DNA of 32,000 nucleotides from Candidatus Brocadia sp. Lineage in GTDB: Bacteria > Planctomycetota > Brocadiia > Brocadiales > Brocadiaceae. Below are positions 2,017-28,834 of the stretch, piece after piece. The position numbers were made by a program, and so were the translations under genes. Under the pieces are notes generated by a model. It saw only the letters and a list, made by a program, of their open reading frames with translations. It had not been told where the DNA came from and made no database searches. Position 1 is the stretch's first letter, and every line of letters starts with the position of its first letter. The stretch spans positions 3,720,001 through 3,752,000 of the forward strand of contig CP091279.1 in assembly GCA_021650915.1 (NCBI GenBank), read 5' to 3'.

Positions 2017-3224
2017 ATAGAAGGGTTGTTGTAACCGGTATCGGTATGATCACTGCCCATGGCATCGGGATAAAGGCAAATTGGACAAAGATAAAATCAG
2101 GCATGTCCAGCATACAGGAGATTGCATCATTTGATTCTTCAAAATACAGAGGAAAGACAGGCGGAGAAGCGCGTGAATTTAGTACTGCTACCCTTAACAA
2201 TCTGAAGAATAAAAGGCTCGATAGGGCGTCACATCTTTTGATTCATACAACACGCGAAGCGCTTGCGGATGCGAATATCATTGATGCGGTAAAAAACATA
2301 CCTGTACTTTTGTCTGTTGGCACAACGCTCGGCGGTATGATTTCCGGAGAGATATTCCATAAAGAGGTTATAAAAAGAGGGCTGAACAGGGCAAAGGTTT
2401 CCCGGGTATTTGATTATCTGGCTCATTATCAGGCGATTCATCTTTTTAAGGAATTGGAATTAAAAGGGGACTTTTTCGTTTTCTCCAATGCCTGCGCTTC
2501 AGGCACCGATGCTATTGGACATGCATTCAATTCAATACGACACGGTGATTATGACGTGGCCATTTGCGGGGGATATGATACCATGAGTGAGTTTTCATTT
2601 GCAGGATTTAACTCACTTATGGCAATAACACCAACCCTTTGCATGCCTTTTGATAAAAAGAGAGAAGGTCTGGTTCTTGGAGAGGGTGCAGGCGTTTTGA
2701 TTTTAGAGGAACTGGAACATGCTCATAAGCGAAATGCACGTATACTGGGTGAGATAGCTGGTTATGGCGCATCATCGGATGCATGCCATATGACAAGCCC
2801 TGAACCATCGGGAAAAGGTGCGGCGATCGCTATAAAAAGGGCTTTGAAAGATGCCGGCCATCCTGAAATTGATTACATAAATGCCCACGGTACCGGGACA
2901 AAATACAATGACATCATGGAAACGAACGCCGTGGTAATAGCGTTTGAAAGCAAGGCAAAGGAAATACCTGTCAGTTCAATAAAACCAATGATCGGGCACC
3001 TCCTCGGAGGCGCTGGAGCAGTTGAGGCAATCGTTTCCCTGTTATCCATACTTTACAAAACCCTTATACCTAATATAAATTATACAACGCCCGACCCTGA
3101 ATGTGCTTTAAATATCGTCAGGGAGTCTATGGGGTGTAATATAAAAACAGTCCTCTCCAACTCATTTGGATTTGGAGGTTCCAATGCAGCAATAATAATC
3201 AGGGAATATGTATGGAGAAATTAG
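2013..3224 (+). CDS. fabF: beta-ketoacyl-ACP synthase II-like ketosynthase (KS-1, catalytic)
   Basis: 403 aa. N-terminal VVVTGIGMIT. Active-site Cys in FSNACASGTDAIG (TGC at 2493-2495). His motifs INAHGTGT and KPMIGHLLGGAG. C-terminal NSFGFGGSNAAIII. TTG start in a TTGA overlap. Confidence 0.9.
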   Translation: MNRRVVVTGIGMITAHGIGIKANWTKIKSGMSSIQEIASFDSSKYRGKTGGEAREFSTATLNNLKNKRLDRASHLLIHTTREALADANIIDAVKNIPVLLSVGTTLGGMISGEIFHKEVIKRGLNRAKVSRVFDYLAHYQAIHLFKELELKGDFFVFSNACASGTDAIGHAFNSIRHGDYDVAICGGYDTMSEFSFAGFNSLMAITPTLCMPFDKKREGLVLGEGAGVLILEELEHAHKRNARILGEIAGYGASSDACHMTSPEPSGKGAAIAIKRALKDAGHPEIDYINAHGTGTKYNDIMETNAVVIAFESKAKEIPVSSIKPMIGHLLGGAGAVEAIVSLLSILYKTLIPNINYTTPDPECALNIVRESMGCNIKTVLSNSFGFGGSNAAIIIREYVWRN

Positions 3225-4267
3225 TTTTGACAGGTGTAGGCATGGTGACTTCTATGGGTATCGGGAAGGAACAATTCTGGAATAACGTAGTAAACGGCTC
3301 TTCCGGGATCAAACGTCTTACGAAGTTTCCTACGGCACACGAAACCTACTGTGGAGAAATTAGTGACTTTCATTTCGATGTATCGATAAGCGACAACAGG
3401 TTCAGACGCGCAGCGGATATATCAAAATACACGCTAACTGCAGTAAACTTAGCAATAAGCGATGCAGGCACGAAGACTTTGGATGACAAAGATACCGCAT
3501 TGGTCGTAGGGATAACCCATGGTGCATTAAATTATGCCCAAGCATTCCATAAGTCACTGGTGATGGAAGGCGTTGATGATATAAGCCCAATACATTTTTC
3601 AGATTCGGTGCTTAACGCCCCGGCCGGTAATGTATCCATCGGCTTTGGTATCAAAGGCCCGATTCATACGCTCGTTGGTGGCGCGACAACTGCTATAAAG
3701 GCAGTGATGCTTGCATCCCGGATGTTGAGCTCCGGAGTGGTTAGCAAGTCAATCGTTGTTTCCTCAGATGAACTGAACGAACTTTCTCTCCACTGCTATT
3801 CACGTCTGGGAATACATACCCTGTCGGAGGGTTCAGGCGCGGTATTGATTGAAAAAGAGGGAAAAATAACGGGAACGACACCCTATTGTTACCTATCAAG
3901 TATAGCATCCCAATGTAATCCCTCAAATCCCTGTGCTACATTGCATGAGGTAATCAATCAATGTTTGGAAAAGGCAGACATAGGTCCAAAAGATATAGAT
4001 CTTGTGATGACGGATTCTTGTGTGCCCGTCAAATCGGATCTTCATGACATTCCTGTCGGATGCATTATACCTCTTTCAGGAAATGCATTTTCACTTACGG
4101 TAATATTGCATATAATAGTGTCTTCTCTGGCCATTAACAATGGCGCGATACCAAAAGCCATTATCAGGAATGGCATTTCAATATCCGATTGCTTACAAAA
4201 TGTGCTCATCTACTCTACAGAAGAAGATGGCATTGCCTCTGCAATGATTTTATCGAAATGCTTATAA
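3212..4267 (+). CDS. KS-like protein lacking the catalytic Cys and His residues (KS-beta / chain-length-factor-like partner of KS-1)
   Basis: 351 aa. KS-like N-terminus LVLTGVGMVTSMGIGKEQFWNNVVNGSSGI and a SEGSGAVLIEKEG block. The nucleophile position reads LVGGATTAIKAV (no Cys), and there is no HGTGT or GHxxG motif. ATG 3212 overlaps the KS-1 stop by 13 nt. Confidence 0.8.
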   Translation: MEKLVLTGVGMVTSMGIGKEQFWNNVVNGSSGIKRLTKFPTAHETYCGEISDFHFDVSISDNRFRRAADISKYTLTAVNLAISDAGTKTLDDKDTALVVGITHGALNYAQAFHKSLVMEGVDDISPIHFSDSVLNAPAGNVSIGFGIKGPIHTLVGGATTAIKAVMLASRMLSSGVVSKSIVVSSDELNELSLHCYSRLGIHTLSEGSGAVLIEKEGKITGTTPYCYLSSIASQCNPSNPCATLHEVINQCLEKADIGPKDIDLVMTDSCVPVKSDLHDIPVGCIIPLSGNAFSLTVILHIIVSSLAINNGAIPKAIIRNGISISDCLQNVLIYSTEEDGIASAMILSKCL

Positions 4268-4286
4268 GTATGAATAGAATGCGTAT

Positions 4287-5351
4287 ATGAATCAAAGTGT
4301 AGATTCTCCCAATATAAAGTTGCTGTTAAGTCAATCACACCCCCAGATGTTTCTCACAGACCGGCTTATACGTTTTGTTGAAGAGGAAGGCATTTCCGAA
4401 CTTCTTCAATCTATGAGACGGTTTACCATTGAGGAGGCTCTTGAGGCATTCCGCGAAAAGCTTGGTTACAAGCTTCAGGATAGAGTAAGACTCAGAATGG
4501 CAAAAGTAATTGTTGATCTCTTATATGAATGTGAGTACCTGGAGAAGAAGGGCGAACGTTATTTCTGGATAGAAGGTAAGGGTTTTGAGACAAAATTGTC
4601 AGCAGATGGATACAAGGTGGCAAAGGACGCTTTTAAAGGACAGGTAGATTTTTTTGAAAGGTGTATCATGTATGCCGATAAGTTTTTGAATGGCAACCCA
4701 CCACTGTATAGCTTCGACAGCGCTTCAACCGGGATTTGGGAGGAATTTCTTGGTAATACCGAATTCAGATTTGCTCGCTCTGTCCTGATAAATCTGTTGT
4801 TTTCCGGGAGGAATGACAACGCAACCGTTCTTGCCCTTTGTTACGGACCCGGTTTTGATATCCTTCAAATGCAGGAACAGTACAATATAAGGGTAACAGC
4901 GCTGGATTTCAAAGACGTCTTTCAGAGTCAGGCGTCCCGGAGAATATTAAATCCCAATTCGGTAAAATGGGTTCAATCGGCATTATGGAAGGGATTTGGG
5001 ACTCCCCTGCCTTTTCATGATACTATGTTCGATGCCGTATTTTTTGCATGCGCTGACCCTTATATTCCGGAGGAATCACGCGAGTTTGTTTATAAAGATA
5101 TATTCAGGGTATTAAAACACGGTGGTATTCTCGGTATTGTAACCCGCAGTTATCCCGATACAGAGAGAAAATATGTGAAAGACCCTTTTGTAAGGAAAGG
5201 CACTCTTTGCCATGACTTTTCCGAAAGTGTTTGTGAGGGGTGGTGCGGGTTTTATCATCCGCAAGAATCGGAAAATCTTTTTAAAACCATCGGGTATCAT
5301 GTCAATACGATAATGCTGAATGCCTCTGTTTGGCGGCTTGATAAACCATGA
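4287..5351 (+). CDS. class I SAM-dependent methyltransferase with ~170-aa N-terminal helical extension
   Basis: 354 aa. The C-terminal half carries Rossmann-MTase blocks (VLALCYGPGFDIL, FDAVFFACA, IFRVLKHGGILGIV). The N-terminal extension resembles the dimerisation/winged-helix heads of small-molecule MTases. Its stop overlaps the next ATG (ATGA at 5348). Confidence 0.75.
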   Translation: MNQSVDSPNIKLLLSQSHPQMFLTDRLIRFVEEEGISELLQSMRRFTIEEALEAFREKLGYKLQDRVRLRMAKVIVDLLYECEYLEKKGERYFWIEGKGFETKLSADGYKVAKDAFKGQVDFFERCIMYADKFLNGNPPLYSFDSASTGIWEEFLGNTEFRFARSVLINLLFSGRNDNATVLALCYGPGFDILQMQEQYNIRVTALDFKDVFQSQASRRILNPNSVKWVQSALWKGFGTPLPFHDTMFDAVFFACADPYIPEESREFVYKDIFRVLKHGGILGIVTRSYPDTERKYVKDPFVRKGTLCHDFSESVCEGWCGFYHPQESENLFKTIGYHVNTIMLNASVWRLDKP

Positions 5352-6538
5352 AGAGTTTGAAGGATACTGTAGTCGTAACGGGAATCGGTGTTATTACTCC
5401 TCTGAAACCGTTTAGGGAAGTCGATGAGTTCTGGAATTCGTTGTGTTCCGGTGAAGATGCCATAAAAAGGATGTCACTTCCGCTGCTTGATATGGATAGG
5501 AAATGGCTTATGGCAGGTATCGATCAATCCCGTTTTCCGAATAGTATAAGTCCCGAAAACAAACTTCAATGGATTGCAGAAGAAGCGCTGTGCATGGCAA
5601 TGAAAGATGCAAATCTCGAAGAGTATGGCAACGCCGGCCTTTCTCTCGGAACGGTGCTTGGTAACGTGCTTGCAAAGGAAAAACGATTACTGGAGAACAA
5701 AAAACAACAGTCAAAATGGGATAATGAAGAGGAATCGCTTTCGCATATCACAGCATATCTTGCTGCTCAACATAATCTGAGCGGACCGACTATTACCATT
5801 TCCACAGCCTGTACTTCCGGTACGGACGCAATAGGAATAGCGGCGCGAAAAATAATGACCGGGAAAACAAGTATGATGTTTGCCGGTGGTGTCGACGTGC
5901 TCAGTGATTTTGCCATTTTAGGCTTTCATGTCCTTCAGGCTCTGACAGAGGAAAAGGTCAGACCTTTTGATAAGAACAGGAGTGGCCTTGCTCTTGGTGA
6001 GGGTGCGGCCTTCGTCGTGCTTGAGTCTGAAAAGCACGCAATTCATCGACAGGCAAAAATATATGGAAAGGTGATGGGCTATGCTTCAAGAGCCGATGCC
6101 AATCACCTGGCAGGCCCACACAGAGAAGGTCGAGGACTCGCTGATGCCATAAATCGTGCAATTTCAGAATATGCCCTCGAACCTCAGGAGATCGACTATA
6201 TTAATGCACATGGGACCGGCACGGTATATAATGACCTCATGGAAACAAAGGCCATAAAAAAGGTATTTGGAAAGGCGGCATACGATATCCCCATAAGCTC
6301 AACAAAATCGATGCTGGGGCATTCCTTCGGCGCTTCCGGCGCCATAGAGGCAATATGCTGTTTGCTTTCCATGAAAAACAAAGTAGTTCCTCCTACGATC
6401 AATTTCCATGAAAAAGACCCCGAATGTGACCTTGATTATGTTCCGAATGTGTCAAGATATCATGACGTGAACACAGCCATTTCACTGTCTGCAGGTTTTG
6501 GCGGTCAAAACGCTGCAATACTATTTGGTCAAGCATGA
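5348..6538 (+). CDS. fabF: beta-ketoacyl-ACP synthase-like ketosynthase (KS-2, catalytic)
   Basis: 396 aa. VVVTGIGVITP. Active-site Cys in ISTACTSGTDAIG (TGT at 5810-5812). INAHGTGT, KSMLGHSFGASG, SAGFGGQNAAILF. ATGA overlaps at both ends. Confidence 0.9.
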   Translation: MKSLKDTVVVTGIGVITPLKPFREVDEFWNSLCSGEDAIKRMSLPLLDMDRKWLMAGIDQSRFPNSISPENKLQWIAEEALCMAMKDANLEEYGNAGLSLGTVLGNVLAKEKRLLENKKQQSKWDNEEESLSHITAYLAAQHNLSGPTITISTACTSGTDAIGIAARKIMTGKTSMMFAGGVDVLSDFAILGFHVLQALTEEKVRPFDKNRSGLALGEGAAFVVLESEKHAIHRQAKIYGKVMGYASRADANHLAGPHREGRGLADAINRAISEYALEPQEIDYINAHGTGTVYNDLMETKAIKKVFGKAAYDIPISSTKSMLGHSFGASGAIEAICCLLSMKNKVVPPTINFHEKDPECDLDYVPNVSRYHDVNTAISLSAGFGGQNAAILFGQA

Positions 6539-7128
6539 AACCGGTAATCACGGGGGTGAGTAAAATAAGCAGCAACAACATCGAATATGCGGCATCCGGT
6601 CTTAAAGATTCTATCAGGCAGATGCGATTTGTTAACAGTCTGGAGCAATTGGCTGTTACCGCTGTTGGTATTATGCTGAATGATGCCAAAATAGATATTC
6701 CCATTGGGAATTCCAATGTCGGTCTTTTTGTTGGTATTGACGATTCTATAGAAGATATTAAGGATGAGTATTTTGAAGGTATTCTGAATGAGGGTATCCT
6801 GGGAGCAAGTCCTTTACTTTTTCCCTATACGACACCGAATTCACTGGCGGCACAGGTATCCATAGCGTTTGATATAAGGGGGGAAAATATCACAATTCCT
6901 ATACAATATTCATATCGCACGGTACTAGAATATGCGGTTGAATGTATTACCGAAAAATACACCGGAACAGCAATTGCAGGTGGAATTAGAGTACAAGATA
7001 AAAATTTATCTATTGGAAATGGTCGATATGTAGCAGAATTTTTTTTACTTGAAGACGTAGACAGCGCAAGAAAACGGGGAGCAACGATATATAACAATGC
7101 ATGGGAAGGGTTGTGTGAGAGTTTTTGA
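6535..7128 (+). CDS. half-length KS-like protein (N-terminal thiolase-fold half only, no catalytic Cys); putative partner of KS-2
   Basis: 197 aa. By eye it aligns only with the N-terminal half of a KS (VITGVSKIS, GLFVGIDDS, LLFPYTTPNSLAAQVSIAFDIRGENITI, AEFFLLEDVDSARKRGATIY). The nucleophile position reads IQYSYRT. The His-bearing C-terminal half is absent. ATGA overlap with KS-2. Confidence 0.6.
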   Translation: MKPVITGVSKISSNNIEYAASGLKDSIRQMRFVNSLEQLAVTAVGIMLNDAKIDIPIGNSNVGLFVGIDDSIEDIKDEYFEGILNEGILGASPLLFPYTTPNSLAAQVSIAFDIRGENITIPIQYSYRTVLEYAVECITEKYTGTAIAGGIRVQDKNLSIGNGRYVAEFFLLEDVDSARKRGATIYNNAWEGLCESF

Positions 7129-8422
7129 TGCCATTGATAGATATTCCTCAGACGAGATAAAAACTCTTCAGGGAGAATTGCTGACCGAAACCGTCCGGTA
7201 TGCATACGAGCATTCTCCTTACTACAAAAAAAGATTCGACGAACTTGGTTTACACCCTTTGCATATGAAAGGTATGGAAAGCATCGAAGAGATGCCTTTT
7301 ACCACGAAGGAAGATGTTCAAAGGGATACATGGGGGTTTCTGGCCGTTCCGAAGCAGGATATTGCAGAAATAGTTTCCACTACGGGAACAACGGGTGATC
7401 CTGCATTTATCGCCCTCACACACAATGATCTTGAAAGGCTTGCATGGAATGAGGAAAAGAGCTTCCGGTATGCCGGCGTTGTCAAAGGGGATCTATTCCA
7501 CATAGCGGTTACCTGTGATAATCTCTTTATAGCCGGAATAGCGTATTACAGAGGACTCATAAATTTGGGCGCCTCTGTTGCACGGATAGGACCGCAAAAT
7601 ACTATCAGGTATCTTGACCTGATAAGAAAATTGAAACCGACAGGTATTGTTGCAGTTCCGTCATTGATACTCCAGAAATTGTGTCGTGCCGGTGAAAATG
7701 GCATATCCGTGAAAGATCTTGGTTTAGAAAAGATTGTTCTCATTGGCGATACCGTCAGAAATGCGGATTTTAGCACGAACAGGCTTGGCAGTTTGATCGA
7801 GAACGCATTTGGCAGAATTTGTTACTCTACCTATGGGATTACCGAGGCGCACCTGTCATTCTGTGAGTGTCAGGTGCATCGCGGTCTTCACAGCCATCCT
7901 GATTTGGTTCTGGTGGAAATAGTCGATGATAACGGCAGAACCCTTTCTGACGGCGAGGTTGGAGAGTTGGTGCTCACTCCATTTCAGATAGAGGGAATGC
8001 CACTGATACGGTATAAAACGGGAGACATTACTTTTAAAATGTCAGAACCATGCCCGTGTGGAAGGAATTCTGTCCGCATTGGTCCAATTCTCGGAAGGAA
8101 ACATCACAAGCTGAAGGTCAAAGGCGTTACGCTCTATCCACAGACCATTGGGAATGCCCTTCTCGATGTAAAGGAAGTGATTAATTATCAGATAGAAGCA
8201 TATACAGGCGATGATCAGACAGACCACATACTCCTCTGGATTGGCTCCTATAATACCAGGAGAGATTTTCTGGCATCCTTGCATGACGCCATCCATGCCA
8301 GGGCCAGGATAACGCCCACAGTAAAAATTGAACGTCCGGAGGAAGTGGAAAAGAGGCTTTTTGAAGGGGGAAGCAGAAAGGCAATTACCTTTAAAGACAG
8401 GAGAATTAAATTGTATGAGTAA
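7097..8422 (+). CDS. adenylate-forming enzyme of the phenylacetate-CoA ligase (PaaK) / coenzyme F390 synthetase-like family
   Basis: 441 aa. N-terminus of PaaK type (SSDEIKTLQGELLTETVRYAYEHSPYYKKRFDELGLHP...MPFTTKEDV). AMP-binding loop STTGTTGDPAF. ITEA and YKTGD motifs. ATG 7097 overlaps the upstream gene by 32 nt; in-frame GTG 7115 (14-nt overlap) is an alternative start. Confidence 0.8.
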   Translation: MHGKGCVRVFDAIDRYSSDEIKTLQGELLTETVRYAYEHSPYYKKRFDELGLHPLHMKGMESIEEMPFTTKEDVQRDTWGFLAVPKQDIAEIVSTTGTTGDPAFIALTHNDLERLAWNEEKSFRYAGVVKGDLFHIAVTCDNLFIAGIAYYRGLINLGASVARIGPQNTIRYLDLIRKLKPTGIVAVPSLILQKLCRAGENGISVKDLGLEKIVLIGDTVRNADFSTNRLGSLIENAFGRICYSTYGITEAHLSFCECQVHRGLHSHPDLVLVEIVDDNGRTLSDGEVGELVLTPFQIEGMPLIRYKTGDITFKMSEPCPCGRNSVRIGPILGRKHHKLKVKGVTLYPQTIGNALLDVKEVINYQIEAYTGDDQTDHILLWIGSYNTRRDFLASLHDAIHARARITPTVKIERPEEVEKRLFEGGSRKAITFKDRRIKLYE

Positions 8423-9467
8423 CACGGCAGACATGGTTCACAAACTTGGTTTTGCAGAAGATGAAATTACCGAATGTCTTGAGAAAAGAGGGTTGCTTTC
8501 CATCGAATTGGAATTTACAAAAAAATGCAATCTCAGATGTCTTTATTGTTACTCCAGCGCTGGAGATCCCTTTGAGAATGAATTGAATCTTGATGAATTA
8601 AAGTCGGTTATATCCCAGGCAAAGGATCTGGGTGTTAAGAAAATAATACTTTTAGGAGGGGGTGAACCTCTGATATATAGCGGCGTAAGGAATATCATAG
8701 AGTATATAGATTCACTGGGATTACAGCAGGTGCTCTTTACGAATGGCACTCTCGTCACGAAGGAATGGGCACAGTTCCTTTTTCATAAAAAGGTTACGGT
8801 AATTACGAAGAGCAATAGCCTGAACTCCGAAGTTCAGGATATCCTTGCGGGTAGAAAAGGTGTCTTCAGCAATATAAGAAAGGGGTTGAAATTTTTACTG
8901 GATGCAGGGTACCCGAATGGAAAGGCGTCGTTAGGAATACAGACCATTATATGCAGGCAGAATATTGCCGAACTTCCGTCTATGTGGATATGGGCGAGAG
9001 AAAATCGCATTATTCCTTATTTTGAGATATTGACATATCAGGGTAGGGCAAAAGAAAATACAGACCTGAATGTATCTGTTTCTGAAGTCAAAGCGATATT
9101 TGAACGTTTAGAGATGATTGACAGGGAAAGGTTTGGTATTCTATGGGAATCGCGTCCAACCATCGCATCCTTCTCGTGCAAACGCCATTTTTACAGTTGC
9201 CTTATTAATTCACAGGGATACGTACAGCCATGCCCGGGCATAGATATGTCTGTTGGAAATATCAGAGAAAAACCTCTGAGAGATATTCTGGAATCCAGTC
9301 ATGTCATTACGAATCTCAGAAATATCTCCGAAAAGATTGAAGGCGCTTGTAAAACATGTGAGTATCGTTATGAATGTTATGGATGCCGGGGAAATGCGTA
9401 TCAAATTACCGGCAATTATCTGTCGTCTGACCCGACGTGTTGGCGCTTCAAGAAAAATCACGAATGA
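8415..9467 (+). CDS. radical SAM enzyme with C-terminal SPASM domain
   Basis: ORF 8328-9467 trimmed to ATG 8415 (8-nt overlap with the upstream stop). CNLRCLYC (Cx3Cx2C) and the GGGEP motif. C-terminal Cys pattern CLINSQGYVQPC ... CKTCEYRYECYGC ... C, i.e. Cx10C with Gx4C, then Cx2Cx5Cx2C, then a final Cys. This is the SPASM auxiliary Fe-S signature. Confidence 0.85.
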   Translation: MSNTADMVHKLGFAEDEITECLEKRGLLSIELEFTKKCNLRCLYCYSSAGDPFENELNLDELKSVISQAKDLGVKKIILLGGGEPLIYSGVRNIIEYIDSLGLQQVLFTNGTLVTKEWAQFLFHKKVTVITKSNSLNSEVQDILAGRKGVFSNIRKGLKFLLDAGYPNGKASLGIQTIICRQNIAELPSMWIWARENRIIPYFEILTYQGRAKENTDLNVSVSEVKAIFERLEMIDRERFGILWESRPTIASFSCKRHFYSCLINSQGYVQPCPGIDMSVGNIREKPLRDILESSHVITNLRNISEKIEGACKTCEYRYECYGCRGNAYQITGNYLSSDPTCWRFKKNHE

Positions 9468-10828
9468 AAATCCTGCTTATCTCTACTAATAACGAGAAGT
9501 ATCCATATCCTGTGGCTCCGATTGGCGCTGCATATATTGCAAAAGCGTTACGAAACAACGGGTATCATGTTAAGATTATCGATCTTTCTTTTGTGGAAGA
9601 CGATTGTGCGGTTATCAGGGATGTCCTGAAAGATTTTGTCCCCCATGTTATTGGCATATCGATAAGGAATATTGACAATCTCACCTACGGCAAAAGTATT
9701 TTCTATATGCCGAGAATTAGACATCTTGTAAACTTCATTAAAAGACACACATCTGTTCCATTAGTAGTTGGTGGCTCTGGTTTCTCTATCTTTCCCGAAG
9801 AGGTTTTGAGATATCTCGAATTGGAAACAGGCATTGTTGGAGAAGGAGAAACAGCATTTGCCCTGGTTGTTGGGGCCATTGAAAAGGGCAAGGACCTGGA
9901 CAATATCCAGAACCTCTGTTATTTAAAAGGTAATAAATTTTACTCCAACAGCATTGCATATACGCAGATTAACAATCGGCCTGACAGATCCCTTTTAAGC
10001 AATAGAATGTATTTTGAACTTGGTGGCATGGCCAATATTCAGTCAAAGAGAGGATGTCCATTTCAATGTACGTATTGTACATACCCATGCATTGAAGGCA
10101 ACAAAATGAGATTGAGAGAACCCATGGATGTCGTGGAAGAACTCAAGGAGATGCGGATTGATTACGGTATTGATTATGTCTTCTTCGTGGATGATATTTT
10201 TAATTTCCCGGAGGAGCATGCTGTTGCCATATGCGAAGAAATAGTCAGAACTAAGGTTAAGGTAAACTGGACTTGTTTTGCAACACCCAAAGGCATGACA
10301 CAGAAACTTGCCGCGCTTATGAAAACGGCCGGCTGTAAAGGGGTCGAATTCGGCTCAGATGCAGGTTCCGAAAAAACACTCAAAGGACTGAGTAAGCATT
10401 TTACCCATGATGACATTGCATATGCTGCTGAGTGTTGCGGGGAAATCGGCCTTCCTAATGCCCATTATATTATCATTGGCGGGCCTGGAGAAGACCATGG
10501 AACACTGCAAGAAACGTTTGCCTTTTTTGAAAAAATCAATCCAACCGCAGTTATTGCTTTGTTGGGATTGCGAATCTATCCAAATACACGGCTTCATAGT
10601 AAATCGATAGAAGACGGTGTAATTGAAAAAGACAGAAATTTGCTTGAACCTGCATTTTATTTATCACCGGAAATGGATACAACTGTAATATTCCGGAATA
10701 TTGCTGAACATGCAAGGAAACATCAAAACTGGATCGTACCCGGACTTGATATAAGATGTGATACGAATATGTTGGCAGTATTGAGGAAAATGGGCAGGAA
10801 AGGTCCATTGTGGGACATGCTCTCGTAA
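9464..10828 (+). CDS. B12-binding-domain radical SAM enzyme (class B-like)
   Basis: ORF 9437-10828 trimmed to ATG 9464 (ATGA overlap). N-terminal flavodoxin-like cobalamin-binding-type domain (MKILLISTNNEKYPYPVAPIGAAYIAKALRNNGYHVKIIDL...VVGGSGFSIFPEE). Radical SAM core SKRGCPFQCTYCTYP (Cx3Cx2C). Confidence 0.85.
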   Translation: MKILLISTNNEKYPYPVAPIGAAYIAKALRNNGYHVKIIDLSFVEDDCAVIRDVLKDFVPHVIGISIRNIDNLTYGKSIFYMPRIRHLVNFIKRHTSVPLVVGGSGFSIFPEEVLRYLELETGIVGEGETAFALVVGAIEKGKDLDNIQNLCYLKGNKFYSNSIAYTQINNRPDRSLLSNRMYFELGGMANIQSKRGCPFQCTYCTYPCIEGNKMRLREPMDVVEELKEMRIDYGIDYVFFVDDIFNFPEEHAVAICEEIVRTKVKVNWTCFATPKGMTQKLAALMKTAGCKGVEFGSDAGSEKTLKGLSKHFTHDDIAYAAECCGEIGLPNAHYIIIGGPGEDHGTLQETFAFFEKINPTAVIALLGLRIYPNTRLHSKSIEDGVIEKDRNLLEPAFYLSPEMDTTVIFRNIAEHARKHQNWIVPGLDIRCDTNMLAVLRKMGRKGPLWDMLS

Positions 10829-10841
10829 GGCAATAGGTCAT

Positions 10842-11585
10842 ATGAAAATGAGCACGCAAAGAGTTGTTCTTGTTACAGGCGGAAGCAAGGGAATAGGAAA
10901 GGCAATATCTGCAGCTTTTGCCGCAAATGGAGACACGGTAATTATAAATTATCATACATCATTTGATGAGGCAAATAAAGTGAAGTTGGAATTATTGCCA
11001 GGAAATACCTCCGTTTCTCTTGAACGGGCTGATGTATCGGATTATCTGCAAGTAAAACGGATGGTTGCCGATATCCTGGAAAAGTACGGGAAAATCGATG
11101 TGGTGGTAAATAATGCCGGTATTGTCAGAGACGGTTTTTTGATGCTTATGTCTGAAAGGGACTGGAATGATGTTATTGCTATAAACCTGAACGGCGTTTT
11201 CAACTGTTCAAAGGCCGTATCAGAATCGATGATCAGTCAAAGGAACGGTATAATAATCAATATCGCTTCCTTGAGCGGAATTACGGGACTGTCTGGTCAG
11301 GCAAATTATTCAGCTGCCAAAGGCGGCGTTATTGCCTTTACAAAGGCGCTTTCAAAGGAACTTGCGCCTTTTAATATACGGGTTAACGCCGTTGCTCCGG
11401 GAGTAATAGAAACGGAAATTGTCGATTCACTTAACGAGAGGGTAAAAAATAATTTTCTCAACGCTATCCCTATGAAAAGATTCGGGAAACCGGATGAGGT
11501 TGCATCTGTTGTTAAGTTCCTTGCATCACCGGATGCCGTCTATATCACGGGAGAAACTATTTGCGTTACGGGAGGACTCCATTGA
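10842..11585 (+). CDS. fabG: 3-oxoacyl-ACP reductase (SDR family)
   Basis: 247 aa. VTGGSKGIGKAI cofactor loop, NNAG, catalytic S...YSAAK, PGVIET. Alternative ATG at 10848. Confidence 0.9.
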   Translation: MKMSTQRVVLVTGGSKGIGKAISAAFAANGDTVIINYHTSFDEANKVKLELLPGNTSVSLERADVSDYLQVKRMVADILEKYGKIDVVVNNAGIVRDGFLMLMSERDWNDVIAINLNGVFNCSKAVSESMISQRNGIIINIASLSGITGLSGQANYSAAKGGVIAFTKALSKELAPFNIRVNAVAPGVIETEIVDSLNERVKNNFLNAIPMKRFGKPDEVASVVKFLASPDAVYITGETICVTGGLH

Positions 11586-11836
11586 TGTCTGACACAATTC
11601 TAAAACTGAAAGATCTGCTGATAACAAGATTAAAACTCAAGGTAAAAGCGGATGGTATACAGGAAGATACACCCTTGTTCGGACCAAACAGTCTTGGCCT
11701 CGATTCTATTGATGTGCTGGAACTGATTATCGGCATCAAAAAGACCTTTGGTGTTGAAATACCTGACAAGGAAACCGCAGAAAAGATATTTATCACGGTA
11801 GGTGCAATAGCACAATATATAGAAGAAAAAAGATGA
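11585..11836 (+). CDS. acyl carrier protein (cluster-dedicated)
   Basis: ORF 11561-11836 trimmed to ATG 11585 (TGATG, 1-nt overlap with the fabG stop). 83 aa. Phosphopantetheine-attachment motif LGLDSIDVLELI, followed by FGVEIPD. Confidence 0.85.
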   Translation: MSDTILKLKDLLITRLKLKVKADGIQEDTPLFGPNSLGLDSIDVLELIIGIKKTFGVEIPDKETAEKIFITVGAIAQYIEEKR

Positions 11837-12249
11837 CAGTTCCCTATCCGTCCCCAAGAACCGCACTACCCCATTCTTACCCGTTTCTCCTGATTGATAG
11901 AATACTTGACCTCGACGAAGGCAAACGCATTGTATGTCTGAAGAATGTGACTATTAATGAGGAATTTTTTCAAGGGCATTTCAAGGATAACCCTGTAATG
12001 CCTGGGTCCCTTATTATAGAAGCAATGGCACAAACGTCTGGATTGATGATTGTTAAAGAAAAATCAAGTATGGCTTATTTGGGCAAGATAAAAGATGCAA
12101 AATTCAGAAAAATGGTTGTGCCTGGTGACCAGCTTATTATTACCTCATCTCTCATTGATAAGTTTCCACCATTTTATACCTTTGAAGTTATTGCATCAGT
12201 TGGAAGCGAGATTGTGTCTGAAGCAGAGATAATCCTTTCCTTAAGTTGA
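11833..12249 (+). CDS. fabZ: 3-hydroxyacyl-ACP dehydratase (FabZ-like hot-dog fold)
   Basis: 138 aa. LPHSYPFLLIDRI and FFQGHFKDNPVMPGSLIIEAMAQ, the FabZ catalytic His/Glu block. ATGA overlap with the ACP gene. Confidence 0.85.
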   Translation: MTVPYPSPRTALPHSYPFLLIDRILDLDEGKRIVCLKNVTINEEFFQGHFKDNPVMPGSLIIEAMAQTSGLMIVKEKSSMAYLGKIKDAKFRKMVVPGDQLIITSSLIDKFPPFYTFEVIASVGSEIVSEAEIILSLS

Positions 12250-12262
12250 TAGGCAGGGCTCT

Positions 12263-13093
12263 ATGAAATACGTCAATTGCAATCTCTGTAATGCTGATGA
12301 TACTTTTCTTGTTACAACACAAAATGGTTATAAGATTGTACGATGTAAAAGTTGTGGTCTTGTTTATGTGAATCCCAGACCAGACAACGAGGCGCTAAAG
12401 CATCTCTATGATGAATATCACCAGAGAAACGGCAAAGACGTGAACGATTGGGCAAAGCTTATGGGAAAAAATTTTAAGGAGATTTTATTGTTTTTAAACA
12501 AAGCGCTTCCAGACAAAGGGAAGCTACTTGATATTGGATGTGGTTACGGACACTTTATCGAGATAATGAAACAGCAAGGATGGTCTGTATATGGAATCGA
12601 TCTCTCTCCTAAGGTATTGCTCTATGCAAAGGAAAAAGGACTGGATGTATTAGAAACATCCATAGATGACGTATCAGTTCCCGACGAATATTTTGATGTC
12701 GTAACGGCATTTTATGTGTTAGAGCATGTGACAAATCCGCTTCATGTCCTCAAAAACATGTATAAAATGCTAAAACCATGTGGAATTCTTGTCTTACGGG
12801 TTCCGCACACAACACCGATTATTCGAATTCTTTCGTTTTTCAGAATAAAGAATAATCTTTATGATACCCCCTATCATTTATTTGACTATTCACCAGAAAT
12901 AATAATTCAACTCCTTAAAAAGGCCGGGTTTTCCTCTGTCAAGGTAACACCGGGAAGCCCGACAATCCCTGCCAATGTATTTGAAATGATAGTTTCTGTG
13001 GTTTCGGGAAGTCTTTCTAAATTCCTTTTTGCAATAAGTGCTGGAAAATTTCTCTTACCCGGGATAAGCAAGACCATTTTTGCTTTCAAATAA
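12263..13093 (+). CDS. class I SAM-dependent methyltransferase with N-terminal CxxC...CxxC zinc-ribbon
   Basis: 276 aa. CNLCNADD...CKSCGLVYVNP ribbon. SAM motif LLDIGCGYGHF. FDVVTAFYVLEHV, LKPCGILVLRVP. Hydrophobic C-terminal tail. Confidence 0.8.
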   Translation: MKYVNCNLCNADDTFLVTTQNGYKIVRCKSCGLVYVNPRPDNEALKHLYDEYHQRNGKDVNDWAKLMGKNFKEILLFLNKALPDKGKLLDIGCGYGHFIEIMKQQGWSVYGIDLSPKVLLYAKEKGLDVLETSIDDVSVPDEYFDVVTAFYVLEHVTNPLHVLKNMYKMLKPCGILVLRVPHTTPIIRILSFFRIKNNLYDTPYHLFDYSPEIIIQLLKKAGFSSVKVTPGSPTIPANVFEMIVSVVSGSLSKFLFAISAGKFLLPGISKTIFAFK

Positions 13094-13120
13094 AAGAAAA
13101 AGAGACTTAGGTACTGTAAG

Positions 13121-15652
13121 ATGAAACGTATGAAATTAGAACATCTTCTGAGAAAAGTTGCATTTGTTATTTTCTTGTACCACAAGAAAATAGTCATCCT
13201 CTTTTCTGTTTTGATTATTGCCTCTTTCTACACTATTTTTCATATGAAAATTGAATCCGATGTTTTAGACGTGCTCCCTTCCGGCAATAAAACGGTTGCT
13301 CAATATAAGGATTTTATAGAAAAATATGGAACCATGGATAACATTGTATTTATCGTGGAATCGGAAGATAATAAAATTAGTGAAAACATAGACCTTATTG
13401 AAAAGATTGCCAAGAATCTTTCCGAATCTCCCCTAATTGAATATGTTGATTACGGCCCACTAAACTATAAGAACGAAGTATTTATAAGATATTTACCACT
13501 CTTTCTTGATGAAACCGGGATAAAATTTCTTAAGAAAAGATTAACACCACAAGGAATTAAACAGCAAGTCAAAATAAACCACGATAGGCTTGTTTCGCCT
13601 CTTAGCTCACCTTTTGATTATGAAATGATTGCAAGAGATCCACTCAATTTACATACTATTCTGAGAGCTAGTTTGTTAAAACAGTATCAGGCGAGCAAAT
13701 TAGATTTAAGCATGGGATATTATTTCACGAAAGATCATTCTGCCGCTCTCCTTCTTGCTAAACCCACAGGTAAGGGCAGAGACATGGCTTTCGTAAAGGA
13801 ATTAAAAAAAGAATTGGATATTATTACCTTCTCTGCATTGCAAGAGTGTAGCAATCCTCCTGGCGTAAAAGTTGGGATAACAGGAGGACATGCAATTGCG
13901 GAAGATATTCGTCAGATTATCAAACATGATGTTACTGTATCTTCTGCACTCTCTATTATTCTTATTGGATTGCTTATAATGCTGGCATATAGGGTGAGAA
14001 TAAAGATTCTTTCCATAATAGGATTAACTATGTTCGCATCTCTAGCAGTAACGTTAGCATTCGCTTATCTCCTTTTTGGAAGTTTAAATATTGTAACGAG
14101 CGCCGTTGTGGCAATACTTATTGATATTTATGTGGATTATTCTTTGCACATGGTAAAAAGGTATTGCGATGAATTTAAAAAACATAATAATCCATACATG
14201 GCGTTAGAAGTAACCCTCACGAGAACAGGGCCAGCTATAATCTTGTCCGCCCTGACAACTTCACTGTCTTTTTTCTGTATCCTTGTAACAAATTTTAAAG
14301 GGTTGTATGAGCTTGGAGTAGTATCCGGAATAGGTGTTATTTTGAGTATGATGTGCAATTTGTTTTTGATGAATGCACTTCTTGTGTGGATCAGTAAATC
14401 TGGTTTGCAACGAATACAATATGGAAGAAATTTCTTTCGTGGAAGCGGGAATTTTCCCAATTTTCTCATAGGGAAAACGAAATATATTCTTACATTGAGT
14501 GCCATTTTGGTTTGTTTGGCAGCATTCGGAATAGCTCGATTAAAATTTAACAATAATCCAGATTCGCTTGCGCCCGTGGATAGTCCTGCTATTCTCTCAG
14601 GAAAGAAGCTGGGTGAAAAAATGGGGAAAAAGGGAGAACCTCTGAATATTATAATTAAATCAGATAACAAAGAAGAACTCAGCCGCGCCTTTGATGAACT
14701 GGAAACTGTTTCTACTCGGTGGAAACACGCTAAGATAATTGAGGATTATAGTTCGTTAAATACATTTATGCCTAAGCCATCGGATCAATTAATAAATGTG
14801 AATACATTAAGAAAAATTGGACATGACAGCTTATTAAGAGTAGATTCTTTAGAAAGTGTACTTATATCTGCCCTTGAAAAAAATGGTTTTGTGTTTGAAA
14901 AAGATTATATTAATAAATATTTACACGAGACAGTAACTACACTTAATACTATTGAGCCTATAGGCTTTGACGAACTTGAAGCAATGTCAATTCCCAATGT
15001 ATCTCATTTTTATAATAAGCGGGATTTATCAATCGTTGCGTATCTTTATCCAACGGTAAAGGGATGGGATAAACGGACCGTGGATACAATACAGGATTAC
15101 ATTATATCAAAAGGGGGAAATTGGGTACTCGTAGGTAAGCCTATTCTTTTTACCGAAATACAGTCATCTATTATCTGGAATAGCGGAATTGCAACCGTAT
15201 TAACAGTTTTGCTGAATCTCATTATTATCTATTGGTATTTTAGAAGATTCCTGGTAGTCGTTTTGGTTATGCTGCCTGTGACACTTGGATTCGTGTTTAC
15301 TGTGGGAATAATGGGTTACGCAAACATCTCTTTTAATGTTTTTAATATTAGTGCGATTGCTCTCATTTTTGGATTAGGAGTTGATTATGGCATATACGTT
15401 ATACAGGCGTATCTGATGGAGGATACCGTGGATGTCGGAAATGCCCTTCGCATTAGCGGAAAAAACGTGATTATGTGTGCCGCGACAACCATAGCCGGTT
15501 GTGGAAGCCTGATAACCGCAAAATTCATTGGGATTGCTACGATAGGTCTTGTTCTTAGTATCGGCGCTATTACCTGCGCTTTCACGGCGCTTATTATTTT
15601 ACCTGCAATTATCATGCTTAAAGGGAAAAGGCTTTGCCATGCCAGACTATGA
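13121..15652 (+). CDS. MMPL/RND-superfamily lipid exporter
   Basis: 843 aa. Duplicated architecture: one TM helix, a large soluble loop and a bundle of about five TM helices, twice (the TM bundles lie around aa 270-420 and 690-835). GxxxD-type helices (FGLGVDYGIY) typical of MMPL/HpnN-like exporters. Confidence 0.8.
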   Translation: MKRMKLEHLLRKVAFVIFLYHKKIVILFSVLIIASFYTIFHMKIESDVLDVLPSGNKTVAQYKDFIEKYGTMDNIVFIVESEDNKISENIDLIEKIAKNLSESPLIEYVDYGPLNYKNEVFIRYLPLFLDETGIKFLKKRLTPQGIKQQVKINHDRLVSPLSSPFDYEMIARDPLNLHTILRASLLKQYQASKLDLSMGYYFTKDHSAALLLAKPTGKGRDMAFVKELKKELDIITFSALQECSNPPGVKVGITGGHAIAEDIRQIIKHDVTVSSALSIILIGLLIMLAYRVRIKILSIIGLTMFASLAVTLAFAYLLFGSLNIVTSAVVAILIDIYVDYSLHMVKRYCDEFKKHNNPYMALEVTLTRTGPAIILSALTTSLSFFCILVTNFKGLYELGVVSGIGVILSMMCNLFLMNALLVWISKSGLQRIQYGRNFFRGSGNFPNFLIGKTKYILTLSAILVCLAAFGIARLKFNNNPDSLAPVDSPAILSGKKLGEKMGKKGEPLNIIIKSDNKEELSRAFDELETVSTRWKHAKIIEDYSSLNTFMPKPSDQLINVNTLRKIGHDSLLRVDSLESVLISALEKNGFVFEKDYINKYLHETVTTLNTIEPIGFDELEAMSIPNVSHFYNKRDLSIVAYLYPTVKGWDKRTVDTIQDYIISKGGNWVLVGKPILFTEIQSSIIWNSGIATVLTVLLNLIIIYWYFRRFLVVVLVMLPVTLGFVFTVGIMGYANISFNVFNISAIALIFGLGVDYGIYVIQAYLMEDTVDVGNALRISGKNVIMCAATTIAGCGSLITAKFIGIATIGLVLSIGAITCAFTALIILPAIIMLKGKRLCHARL

Positions 15653-18126: not shown

Positions 18127-18149
18127 TATAAAGATAGTAATCCACATAC

Positions 18150-20263: not shown

Positions 20264-20305
20264 AAACTCCCTCCTTAAACCTTATTTTGCAAATAGTTAT
20301 TACGA

Positions 20306-23182: not shown

Positions 23183-23330
23183 GTTAGTTTTAATGGCAGC
23201 GGTTCAGATCAATGCGAAATACATCAAGAAACAACATGGCGAGCGTTTATAATCGTGGATGGGATGGTCGTGCTTTTCGTGCCAGAACAGGTGAAGAGAG
23301 ATTTAATCCTTCTCTGAATAATTATTCCGT

Positions 23331-24038: not shown

Positions 24039-24048
24039 AAAAAGCCTC

Positions 24049-28825: not shown

Positions 28826-28834
28826 GTAGGTGGT

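Follow-up and report, generated by a model that had tools for sequence, protein, structure and literature searches.

A radical SAM enzyme pair in an anammox gene cluster resembling aryl polyene and flexirubin loci is not ladderane specific and most likely tailors a non-ladderane lipid

The closest described counterpart of the locus analysed here is the operon Kuste3352-Kuste3335 of Candidatus Kuenenia stuttgartiensis (Rattray 2009, Javidpour 2016), which matches it operon-wide in gene order and predicted functions. Our locus lies in a 32,000-nucleotide stretch of DNA (the window) from another species, Candidatus Brocadia fulgida, and contains a pair of radical SAM genes (protein accession no. 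KKO18989.1 and KKO18988.1) corresponding to Kuste3343 and Kuste3342. A candidate involvement in ladderane synthesis has been proposed for both Kuenenia proteins; the proposal was in print by 2009 and, by that paper's account, more than 2 years earlier (PMC2649909). It was tested in 2016 without success, and the Kuste3342 and Kuste3343 proteins were undetectable in Escherichia coli (PMC4790861). The hypothesis that the pair closes ladderane rings, which an earlier note on this DNA had also put forward, is already known and not new, while its statement that no enzyme is known for ladderane formation still holds (PMC10139942, PMC13459092).

The field favours a different cluster, KustE3603-3608, which is reported to occur only in ladderane producers and to be highly expressed (PMC10139942). 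Like the window locus, this Cluster I (amxACP, amxFabZ, amxFabF2/FabFmut, PDH, and a B12 radical SAM enzyme) is a candidate FAS-like locus of anammox bacteria that includes both a cobalamin radical SAM enzyme and a CrtI-like flavoprotein, but it has neither a SPASM enzyme nor a ligase. Its cobalamin enzyme Kuste3608 shares 26% identity with the window enzyme over the N-terminal domain, and the Kuste3608 paralogue Kuste2803 shares 20%. The cofactor classes of the window pair also occur in Tes, Gms, and Mss (SPASM) and in GrsA and GrsB (cobalamin), which are able to link inert lipid chains or cyclise them (PMC13459092) and whose substrates are isoprenoid or finished membrane lipids. Tes shows no detectable similarity to the window SPASM enzyme among its sequence and fold matches.

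In gene content, the window cluster resembles the aryl polyene and flexirubin clusters. Like these, it encodes, with all genes on the forward strand, a FlxY-like ligase (positions 7097 to 8422), a ketosynthase (2013 to 3224) with a chain-length-factor-like partner (3212 to 4267), a FabG/FlxB-like ketoreductase (10842 to 11585; Pfam and NCBIfam matches), an acyl carrier protein of 83 residues with a PP-binding domain (11585 to 11836), and a FabZ-like dehydratase (11833 to 12249), which matches FabA/FabZ and, in the precomputed Pfam annotation, is ApeP-like and ApeI-like. The polysaccharide deacetylase, also shared, is encoded between positions 204 and 2016 together with a 263-residue protein with a hydrophobic N-terminus and a 67-residue two-helix membrane protein (1813 to 2016, a kuste3350 orthologue). 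The tailoring and export genes between 12263 and 18788 encode a class I methyltransferase, an MMPL/HpnN-like exporter, a CrtI-like flavoprotein, a GT2 glycosyltransferase, and a PlsC-like acyltransferase; methyltransferases, GT2, acyltransferase, and MMPL exporter again have counterparts in the aryl polyene/flexirubin clusters. The remaining genes encode a second ketosynthase (5348 to 6538), a 197-residue protein corresponding to a ketosynthase N-terminal fragment (6535 to 7128), and the PKS-type C-methyltransferase AmxMT1 (4287 to 5351; 825 bits over the full length against 8hd2_A), for which a crystal structure is available (PDB ID 8HD2) and whose pocket is too small for a ladder (PMC9821293). 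No enoyl reductase is found among the cluster genes with Pfam and NCBIfam. The similarity misses the equivalog cut-offs, with the PaaK/FlxY-like adenylating enzyme scoring 433 bits for FlxY (cut-off 520) and 232 for PaaK, and the reductase falling below the curated NCBIfam cut-off for FlxB. To our knowledge, radical SAM enzymes are no part of the described aryl polyene/flexirubin clusters.

The two adjoining radical SAM genes, a SPASM gene (8415 to 9467) and a B12-binding gene (9464 to 10828), are flanked upstream by the adenylating enzyme and downstream by the FabG, ACP, and FabZ-like genes, as the earlier note had described. The junctions are equally confirmed: the ligase and SPASM genes share 8 nt (ATG at 8415, ligase stop at 8420 to 8422; ATGAGTAA), an ATGA junction joins the pair (ATG at 9464, TGA at 9465 to 9467), and 13 nt separate the stop of the B12 gene (10828) from the fabG ATG (10842). 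Together with the motifs given below, this arrangement cannot be due to chance.

The SPASM enzyme (350 residues) is an exact match to KKO18989.1 and an orthologue of Kuste3343, with 68% identity in a gap-free alignment over residues 1 to 128 of the latter. Pfam detects Radical_SAM (E=1.9e-19) and SPASM (E=4.4e-10) domains, and the CX3CX2C motif at residues 38 to 45 is followed by the complete SPASM cysteine set claimed before: C255, C262-x10-C273 with G268-x4-C273 inside, C312-x2-C315-x5-C321-x2-C324, and C342. Among 23 homologues with identities down to 58%, C262 is at least 90% conserved and the other seven of the eight cysteines do not vary. The AlphaFold2 model (pLDDT 84.9) shows a generic SPASM fold. 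In the NCBIfam search the protein stays below every curated cut-off; the highest scores are for AhbD, NirJ, and AhbC of the alternative haem and haem d1 synthesis (157, 150, and 107 bits), far under cut-offs of 500 to 650 (500 for AhbD). These enzymes are of similar length, have no peptide-binding domain at the N-terminus either, and use small molecules rather than peptides as substrates, whereas the window has no tetrapyrrole context and pairs the SPASM gene with an adenylating enzyme.

The cobalamin-binding (class B) radical SAM enzyme (454 residues; BROFUL_02282/KKO18988.1) is the Kuste3342 orthologue, with 62.5% identity over the 128 gap-free N-terminal residues. As previously noted, it combines an N-terminal B12-binding domain (Pfam, residues 10 to 135, E=1.9e-17) with a CX3CX2C motif at 198 to 205, within a Radical_SAM match (E=4.1e-19). 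It passes the NCBIfam family TIGR04072 over its full length (434.9 bits against a cut-off of 360), a family with the product name "lipid biosynthesis B12-binding/radical SAM protein" (model rSAM_ladder_B12); the location of the gene amid fatty acid/polyketide-type genes matches this name. TIGR04072 also takes in the Nitrospira and Dissulfurispiraceae orthologues and that of the cultured Desulfosediminicola flagellatus (596 bits). Desulfobulbales members score higher (596 bits) than the anammox/Nitrospirota branch (404 to 435), and homologues from non-anammox MAGs carry the same NCBI product name.

Among characterised proteins, the B12 enzyme is closest to BzaD, TsrM, and PhpK. BzaD, a predicted benzimidazole C-methylase, has the best non-self HMM score (246.8 bits, under its cut-off), and the closest solved structure is the tryptophan C2-methyltransferase TsrM (PDB ID 6WTE; phmmer 4e-39, 151.9 bits; Foldseek TM 0.86 to 0.87), although the identity is only 22 to 23%. 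Both share with the window enzyme the order of a cobalamin Rossmann domain before the radical SAM barrel, and both are sp2-carbon methylases (PMC12931638). The lower-axial Arg69 of TsrM corresponds to R68, which is conserved family-wide. However, Glu273, which caps the cluster in TsrM, is Ile, Val, or Thr across TIGR04072, and Glu236 is Tyr, so that judging by these residues radical SAM cleavage is likely possible and the non-radical mechanism of TsrM is not simply transferable.

At least 463 genomes encode relatives of the SPASM enzyme. Nitrospirota, NC10, Deltaproteobacteria, Omnitrophota, and Bacteroidales share the whole cluster of about 20 genes, together with the radical SAM pair, which often keeps the same overlaps. 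The cluster is also found in Verrucomicrobiota and Sumerlaeota, and a rearranged version exists in Desulfobulbales. The hosts come mainly from groups generally considered anaerobic. Orthologues at 45 to 72% identity and the complete cluster are present in many phyla not known for ladderanes, and most of the carriers are uncultured MAGs. The ligase gene immediately precedes the SPASM gene in 62 of the 76 assessable loci, with an overlap of 4 or 8 nt in 29 loci, and in one locus (L066) the two stand alone without the rest of the cluster. The SPASM enzyme has no more constant partner than the adenylating enzyme, and the ligase-SPASM pair forms the invariant core. On balance, we consider it probable that the pair are accessory radical SAM enzymes of a widespread, mostly anaerobe aryl-polyene/flexirubin-like cluster with a non-ladderane product.

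The earlier note regarded the pair as prime candidates for cyclobutane or cyclohexane closure on a polyenoyl-ACP, which is the older published proposal. The host is indeed an anammox bacterium, no ladderane enzyme is known, an unsaturated chain is plausible because the cluster lacks an enoyl reductase, both cofactor classes are known to form lipid C-C bonds or rings (PMC13459092), and radical chemistry is possible in a B12 enzyme without the TsrM Glu cap. The candidacy is nevertheless weakened by the occurrence of pair and cluster in many non-anammox groups. Desulfotalea psychrophila is free of ladderanes although it encodes homologues, DP1855 and DP1853 (PMC2649909). In the trees, anammox sequences interleave with Nitrospirota and form no separate clade, the Brocadia-Kuenenia identity (62 to 68%) being no higher than that between Brocadia and Nitrospirota, and in one 99%-identical Brocadia genome an IS element interrupts the cluster. 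Expression in Kuenenia is low, with 10.8 FPKM for kuste3343 and 6.5 for kuste3342 against 28 to 122 for kuste3603-3608 (3- to 19-fold lower), and the B12 enzyme belongs to a different subfamily from the field's candidate Kuste3608. With the missing similarity to Tes, this makes ladderane closure by the pair highly improbable. We give even less credence to the SPASM enzyme being a maturase of peptides (RiPPs) or proteins, the role of most characterised SPASM enzymes. Its best structural matches are SkfB, SuiB, PqqE, CteB, and anSME, but these are generic (17 to 24% identity, TM 0.63 to 0.72), and the top HMM scores go to the tetrapyrrole-acting AhbD and NirJ. With only some 28 residues ahead of the radical SAM core, the protein lacks an RRE domain. 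The precomputed Pfam annotation of the operon genes includes nothing PqqD-like, and the conserved neighbour is a ligase rather than a peptide gene. No intergenic gap between 204 and 18788 exceeds 27 nt, leaving no space for a precursor gene, and the search for overlooked small ORFs returned only the conserved, hydrophobic two-helix membrane protein at 1813 to 2016. This agrees with the earlier note, which saw no RiPP precursor and preferred a carrier-bound substrate; it is therefore sensible to assume that the substrate is a small molecule, an acyl group on a carrier, or a lipid.

Rattray's alternative casts the radical SAM enzymes, together with the CrtI-like flavoprotein, as desaturases that work without oxygen in a novel anaerobic pathway to polyunsaturated fatty acids or hydrocarbons. 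It draws on D. psychrophila, which possesses the homologous cluster and produces C31:8 and C31:9 hydrocarbons (PMC2649909). The flavoprotein is conserved across the cluster loci. SPASM/twitch enzymes with auxiliary clusters, such as the anSME, BtrN, and AhbD families, often perform two-electron oxidations. Long polyolefinic hydrocarbons of this type are, however, attributed elsewhere to Pfa/Ole pathways, and the ligase, glycosyltransferase, acyltransferase, and exporter better fit a specialised exported lipid than bulk fatty acids. In Kuenenia, polyunsaturated acids or hydrocarbons were not found (PMC2649909), and Kuste3336 and Kuste3607 showed no CrtI activity and E. coli formed no new fatty acids (PMC4790861), so this route seems unlikely. 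Installation of mid-chain methyl branches, e.g., in 10- or 11-methylhexadecanoic acid, by the cluster and the cobalamin enzyme in particular would suit a class B enzyme, most members of this class being C-methylases (PMC12931638). Sulfate reducers typically contain 10MeC16:0, and 11MeC16:0 is typical of Nitrospira moscoviensis (PMC6487957). The cluster is carried by sulfate reducers, Nitrospira, anammox, and NC10 bacteria alike. For the latter two, 10MeC16:0 has also been reported. The overlap is a taxonomic coincidence only; the literature search found no paper linking the cluster to these acids, and Verrucomicrobiota, Omnitrophota, and Sumerlaeota carry the cluster as well. Ketosynthase pairs, ligase, glycosyltransferase, and exporter would be superfluous for a methyl branch, and the conserved lower-axial Arg is of the type found in enzymes without radical sp3 methylation (PMC12931638), leaving mid-chain methylation with very little probability.

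For the aryl-polyene/flexirubin-like reading, the analysis shows the identities of the genes, their domains and motifs, the synteny and distribution of the cluster, and the similarity of folds, whereas each chemical step is inferred. The ligase would activate a carboxylic acid unit, and the SPASM enzyme, translationally coupled to it, may perform an oxygen-independent oxidative step (desaturation, decarboxylation, or cross-link) on the substrate or product of the ligase, with two auxiliary Fe-S clusters as the putative electron path. The final product would be an exported, lipid-anchored, polyketide-like compound and probably no ladderane. The scores for FlxY, FlxB, AhbD, and BzaD, all under their curated cut-offs, count against this explanation, and the likenesses are therefore analogies rather than family memberships. 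The two class I methyltransferases already present in the operon likewise count against it. The TIGR04072 enzyme would be an optional tailoring enzyme, most probably C-methylating an sp2 carbon of an aryl or polyene group; a cobalamin-dependent rearrangement or cyclisation is a possible alternative, a hydrophilic lower-axial residue being present also in the non-methylating OxsB (PMC12931638). Two otherwise complete clusters (L015 and L019) have no B12 gene, which fits an optional tailoring role.

The SPASM radical SAM gene (8415-9467, 350 aa) and the B12-binding radical SAM gene (9464-10828, 454 aa) were delimited by the ORF listing, and the reading of the junctions reproduced exactly the tight spacing that the earlier note had described. 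The ATG of the SPASM gene at 8415 lies within the last codons of the upstream gene for a PaaK/FlxY-like adenylating enzyme, here called the ligase (7097-8422; ATGAGTAA, with the ligase stop at 8420-8422). The start of the B12 gene overlaps the stop of the SPASM gene as ATGA, both in the ORF listing and at the junction, and the ATG of fabG at 10842 follows 13 nt past the stop of the B12 gene. The domain content of the two genes also agrees with what had been read by eye, as supported by Pfam and by the motifs. The SPASM enzyme matches Radical_SAM (Pfam ID PF04055, E=1.9e-19) and SPASM (Pfam ID PF13186, E=4.4e-10), with the CX3CX2C motif at residues 38-45 and a complete set of SPASM cysteines at C255, C262-x10-C273 (with G-x4-C), C312-x2-C315-x5-C321-x2-C324, and C342. 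Among 23 homologues with identities down to 58%, seven of the eight cysteines of this region never vary, and the eighth, C262, is conserved to at least 90%. The protein carries the seven-cysteine motif of the SPASM subfamily, which predicts two auxiliary [4Fe-4S] clusters. The B12 enzyme has a B12-binding domain (Pfam ID PF02310) at residues 10-135 (E=1.9e-17, 63.6 bits), followed by a Radical_SAM domain (E=4.1e-19) with CX3CX2C at residues 198-205. This is the class B domain order, with an N-terminal Rossmann domain predicted to bind cobalamin ahead of the radical SAM domain. A partial TIM barrel is visible in the AF2 models of both enzymes.

Candidatus Brocadia fulgida encodes the ligase, SPASM, and B12 proteins with exactly the same sequence (as KKO18990.1, KKO18989.1, and KKO18988.1/BROFUL_02282, respectively), and identical proteins are present on many assemblies. 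The gene order and the predicted functions are as in the Kuenenia stuttgartiensis operon Kuste3352-Kuste3335 (PMC2649909, PMC4790861). Partial sequences of Kuste3343 and Kuste3342, translated from the synthetic genes in Table S2 of Javidpour 2016 (PMC4790861), align without gaps over the first 128 residues, with 68% identity to the SPASM enzyme and 62.5% to the B12 enzyme, respectively. The methyltransferase encoded at 4287-5351 was identified, with a full-length score of 825 bits, as AmxMT1 of Brocadia fulgida, an enzyme of solved crystal structure (PDB ID 8HD2). The authors of that structure assign it to the polyketide synthase (PKS) type of alpha-C-methyltransferase, acting on short beta-ketoacyl-ACP, with a pocket judged too small for a ladder (PMC9821293). 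The match to Kuste3352-Kuste3335, together with the AmxMT1 structure, indicates that the operon has already been studied. A ladderane role for its SAM-dependent enzymes was in print by 2009 (PMC2649909), and expression in E. coli left the Kuste3342 and Kuste3343 proteins undetectable and gave no new fatty acids (PMC4790861). A literature search for characterised orthologues (DP1853, DP1855, TIGR04072) gave nothing beyond Rattray 2009. The locus is already known, and the idea that the pair closes ladderane rings is a rediscovery of a published hypothesis, which is weakened by the comparative data.

We scanned one genome per species with the SPASM enzyme and compared synteny by tblastn of the window's 19 proteins against the best 80 loci. 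Relatives of the SPASM enzyme are encoded in at least 463 genomes, and the best 80 loci among them span about a dozen phyla and come from anammox Brocadiales, Nitrospirota (with Dissulfurispiraceae and Thermodesulfovibrionia), NC10/Methylomirabilota, Rokubacteria, many Desulfobacterota, Geobacteraceae, non-anammox Planctomycetia, Verrucomicrobiota, Kiritimatiellae, Omnitrophota, Sumerlaeota, Hydrogenedentota, and Bacteroidota. The pair is carried by the genera Brocadia, Jettenia, and Kuenenia, and no Scalindua locus occurs among the best 80 of at least 463. Within the same best 80, 62 of the 76 assessable loci have the ligase gene immediately upstream of the SPASM gene and in the same orientation, and 28 of 73 have a B12-binding radical SAM homologue immediately downstream. 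A ligase/SPASM overlap of 4 or 8 nt is the commonest layout (29 loci), a count that took the start codon nearest the upstream stop and is thereby biased toward small gaps.

Nearly the whole gene order (deacetylase, ketosynthase (KS), CLF-like protein, methyltransferase, KS, KS fragment, ligase, SPASM, B12, FabG, ACP, dehydratase, methyltransferase, MMPL, flavoprotein, and GT2) is kept in Nitrospirota (e.g., locus L006 on a 973-kb contig), NC10, Deltaproteobacteria MAGs, Omnitrophota, and a Bacteroidales MAG. A 170-kb Dissulfurispiraceae contig has matching gene calls, including the overlapping SPASM and B12 gene starts. Two loci (L015 and L019) are otherwise complete but have fabG directly after the SPASM gene, without the gene for the cobalamin enzyme of family TIGR04072, which indicates that this enzyme is optional. 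In a Spartobacteria MAG (L066, 8672-11068), the ligase and SPASM genes occur as a pair on their own; their neighbours there are unrelated, encoding an FG-GAP protein, an outer-membrane protein, a Znu transporter, and LeuRS. Desulfobulbales show a rearranged order (flavoprotein, KS, PlsC, ligase, SPASM, KS fragment, B12, GT2, ACP, KS, and FabG), and the cultured Desulfosediminicola flagellatus has a B12 enzyme with a TIGR04072 score of 596 bits and a ligase with a FlxY score of 424 bits. Rattray found a cluster of this type in Desulfotalea psychrophila, whose lipids are without ladderanes (PMC2649909). Some 9 kb upstream (149-1288), the Desulfosediminicola locus (L073) has another SPASM radical SAM gene of a different kind, whose best NCBIfam score, below the cut-off, is for a tungsten-cofactor oxidoreductase maturase. 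What may be new in detail is that the ligase-SPASM pair forms the invariant core of a cluster shared by several phyla.

In neighbour-joining trees of the ligase, SPASM, and B12 proteins, built without bootstrap values, the anammox sequences are interleaved with those of Nitrospirota, and the Brocadia-Kuenenia identity of 62-68% is no higher than the Brocadia-Nitrospirota identity of 60-72%. Nothing in these sequence comparisons suggests an anammox-specific change of function.

The SPASM enzyme reaches no curated NCBIfam cut-off. Its best scores are to AhbD (157 against a cut-off of 500), NirJ2 (150 against 500), and NirJ (110 against 515). AhbD and NirJ2 modify tetrapyrroles, and a haem-type role of the AhbD/NirJ kind was rejected on the low scores and on a gene context devoid of tetrapyrrole functions. 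The AF2 model (pLDDT 84.9) shows a generic SPASM fold, with Foldseek matches to SkfB, SuiB, PqqE, CteB, and anSME at TM scores of 0.63-0.72 and identities of 17-24%. Tes (PDB ID 7TOL) appears neither among the phmmer hits at E<=0.001 nor among the top 50 Foldseek matches, and with neither a sequence nor a fold signal to it, a lipid-coupling enzyme of the Tes/Gms/Mss group was likewise rejected.

The B12 enzyme belongs to the NCBIfam family TIGR04072, "lipid biosynthesis B12-binding/radical SAM protein", with 434.9 bits against a cut-off of 360 and residues 2-453 aligned to profile positions 1-441 of 443. The ketosynthase, FabG, ACP, and FabZ genes expected around members of this family lie around it both in the window and in related loci. 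The next families all stay under their cut-offs, namely BzaD (246.8 bits against 450), the TsrM-type tryptophan methylase (151.9 bits), PhpK (149.5 bits), HpnJ (108 bits), HpnR (98.7 bits against 650), and BchE (75.9 bits against 481), and HpnP is not among the 25 NCBIfam families listed. TsrM is the only strong relative with a solved structure by sequence (4e-39), and the AF2 model (pLDDT 90.0) matches it with TM scores of 0.86-0.87, compared with at most 0.75 for the glutamine methylase QCMT/MgmA, AprD4, OxsB, CysS, and TokK. According to a 2026 review, BzaD probably methylates an sp2 carbon and is "reminiscent of TsrM", and the "Ladderane" group is counted with those enzymes whose transformation is unknown (PMC12931638).

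In TsrM, Arg69 lies beneath the cobalamin and is typical of enzymes without radical methylation, and Glu273 forms a cap over the unique cluster iron that presumably prevents radical chemistry (PMC12931638). In the HMMER alignment, TsrM R69 corresponds to R68 of the window protein, which is invariant in 24 homologues and conserved in both TIGR04072 branches. At the position of TsrM E273 the window protein has I245, and the TIGR04072 family varies there between Ile, Val, and Thr; TsrM E236 is matched by the invariant Y207, an aromatic type of residue known at this position from radical enzymes (PMC12931638). Judged from the alignment, the family is a hybrid of "non-radical" and "radical" signatures, with a TsrM-like fold and lower-axial Arg and a predicted uncapped cluster. 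Such a signature would fit methyl transfer to an sp2 carbon and is also compatible with a cobalamin-dependent radical reaction other than methylation. This hybrid TsrM-like signature may be new in detail.

Maturation of a RiPP or another protein would be a usual assignment for a SPASM enzyme such as PqqE, AlbA, SkfB, MftC, or SuiB, a type marked by a precursor gene and by an RRE domain or PqqD partner; here, both are lacking. Across 204-18788 the largest intergenic gap is at most 27 nt, and the sole small ORF (1813-2016, 67 aa) encodes a conserved, strongly hydrophobic, two-helix membrane protein that is encoded at the corresponding position in loci of anammox bacteria, Nitrospirota, and Deltaproteobacteria, for which reason it was rejected as a precursor peptide. 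The absence of a RiPP precursor reported from the bare sequence therefore stands after the small-ORF check of the operon. In the AF2 model the radical SAM core of the SPASM enzyme begins at about residue 29, and the roughly 28 residues ahead of the first core strand leave no RRE domain; no PqqD-like protein occurs among the precomputed Pfam hits of the operon genes. The conserved neighbour of the SPASM gene is the ligase, not a peptide gene, and RiPP or protein maturation, contradicted by the missing precursor and RRE, seems to us exceedingly improbable. The 67-aa protein is the orthologue of kuste3350, a gene that Javidpour et al. listed as an "ACP" and cloned under that name. The window protein matches no NCBIfam family and has no PP-binding domain in the precomputed Pfam record, and the "ACP" label looks like a mis-annotation.

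The earlier note had ranked the pair as prime candidates for cyclobutane or cyclohexane closure, a standing weakened by the distribution and phylogeny of these genes, by their expression, and by a better candidate cluster elsewhere in anammox genomes. A ladderane-specific system would be confined to anammox bacteria, but the full cluster occurs in Nitrospirota, NC10, Deltaproteobacteria, Omnitrophota, and Bacteroidales. In the Kuenenia transcriptome of Kartal et al., given in Table S7 of Javidpour, kuste3343 and kuste3342 reach 10.8 and 6.5 FPKM, with 3-26 for the whole operon, 28-122 for kuste3603-3608, and 60-449 for the canonical FAS cluster (PMC4790861). Ladderane enzymology groups now centre on KustE3603-3608, a separate anammox cluster reported to be conserved in and exclusive to ladderane producers and highly expressed (PMC10139942; bioRxiv 10.64898/2026.05.19.726425). 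In the N-terminal domain, its B12 enzyme Kuste3608 is 58.6% identical to its paralogue Kuste2803, whereas the window B12 enzyme is 26% identical to Kuste3608 and 20% to Kuste2803. A Brocadia assembly with 98.8-99.3% nucleotide identity to the window (GCA_029760155.1, locus L083) carries a 1848-bp IS element (L083 3551-5398) in the CLF-like gene, at about 3813-3818 of the window, with a DDE_Tnp_1 transposase, terminal inverted repeats matching at 14 of 16 positions, and a TACATA target duplication. As an insertion in a MAG consensus this is weak evidence, but it suggests that the cluster is dispensable in an anammox bacterium. We regard ring closure by the SPASM and B12 pair as very unlikely. 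Rattray's idea of anaerobic desaturation or PUFA formation could apply to the SPASM enzyme, though we hold it unlikely. Mid-chain methyl branching, for which a taxonomic coincidence is the sole basis and for which our search found no literature link between the cluster and 10-methyl fatty acids, is highly improbable. A bolder proposal, which we consider distinctly unlikely, is that the conserved ligase/SPASM/TIGR04072 module acts on an unsaturated chain bound to ACP or lipid and, instead of methylating it, forms a C-C bond that closes a ring or rearranges the chain, in a radical reaction assisted by Fe-S clusters and cobalamin, so that many anaerobes would make an undiscovered carbocyclic lipid, and that this product or its enzymes feed anammox ladderane assembly together with KustE3603-3608.

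The part list resembles that of aryl-polyene and flexirubin clusters, with all part types present (ligase, KS/CLF, KR, DH, ACP, acyl- and glycosyltransferase, and MMPL) but with scores below the cut-offs. The ligase scores 433 bits to FlxY (cut-off 520) and 232 bits to PaaK, and the FabG/FlxB-like reductase 261 to FlxB (cut-off 340). For the FabZ-type dehydratase, ApeP/ApeI-like hits occur in the precomputed data only, and a fresh Pfam scan gave only FabA. Further parts are two KS/partner pairs, C-methyltransferases, a CrtI-like flavoprotein, a GT2 glycosyltransferase, a PlsC-like acyltransferase, and a polysaccharide deacetylase. From these parts we infer the chemical steps of a pathway whose product would be an exported, lipid-anchored, polyketide-like compound. 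The SPASM enzyme would probably perform an oxygen-independent oxidative step on the ligase-activated acid or its thioester, as judged from the conserved coupling to the ligase and the known reactions of related SPASM/twitch enzymes. The TIGR04072 enzyme would act in optional tailoring, for which the relationships to BzaD and TsrM and the conserved Arg make methylation of an aryl or polyene sp2 carbon the best guess. Aryl polyenes and flexirubins typically have an ortho-methylated phenol as head group.

Ladderane synthesis has long been an unsolved problem, and identifying a first enzyme of the pathway would be a major advance. The gene pair has been on the candidate list since at least 2009, and the comparative evidence lowers its standing for ring closure. 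Its remaining value lies in a very widespread orphan lipid or polyketide cluster, mostly of anaerobes, whose constant core is a ligase coupled to a SPASM enzyme and which usually also has a TsrM-like cobalamin enzyme with the lower-axial Arg kept and the capping Glu lost. The product from a cultivable carrier (e.g., Desulfosediminicola, Desulfotalea, or Geobacter) would explain a cluster that genome-mining tools label "ladderane" in many phyla, and would also decide whether it relates to ladderanes.

Some further features of the locus were observed. The 197-aa protein at 6535-7128 consists of a ketosynthase N-terminal fragment only, and its gene shares 4 nt with the preceding KS gene and 32 nt with the ligase gene. 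Related clusters retain this protein, with a 178-aa counterpart after the SPASM gene in Desulfosediminicola. The operon begins before the window, as genes for a second B12-binding radical SAM protein (467 aa) and a 387-aa ATP-grasp protein come immediately before that of the 263-aa protein at 204 (loci L081/L082, 1-1780). The same pair is found in Dissulfurispiraceae (L084, 1-1831), and published descriptions of the Kuenenia operon begin at Kuste3352, without these two genes. NCBIfam scans of the upstream ATP-grasp protein, a 192-aa protein of L084, and the 178-aa KS-fragment-like and extra SPASM proteins of L073 were uninformative. The downstream genes (19034-31247) look unrelated to the operon, with a GC content rising to 0.53 at 19-20 kb; their products include a TrkA-N/DHH/DHHA1-domain protein, a Pab1020-type RNA ligase (22040-23182), a PIN_5 ribonuclease, a sugar nucleotidyltransferase, a UbiD-family decarboxylase (27032-28825), and a polysaccharide export protein.
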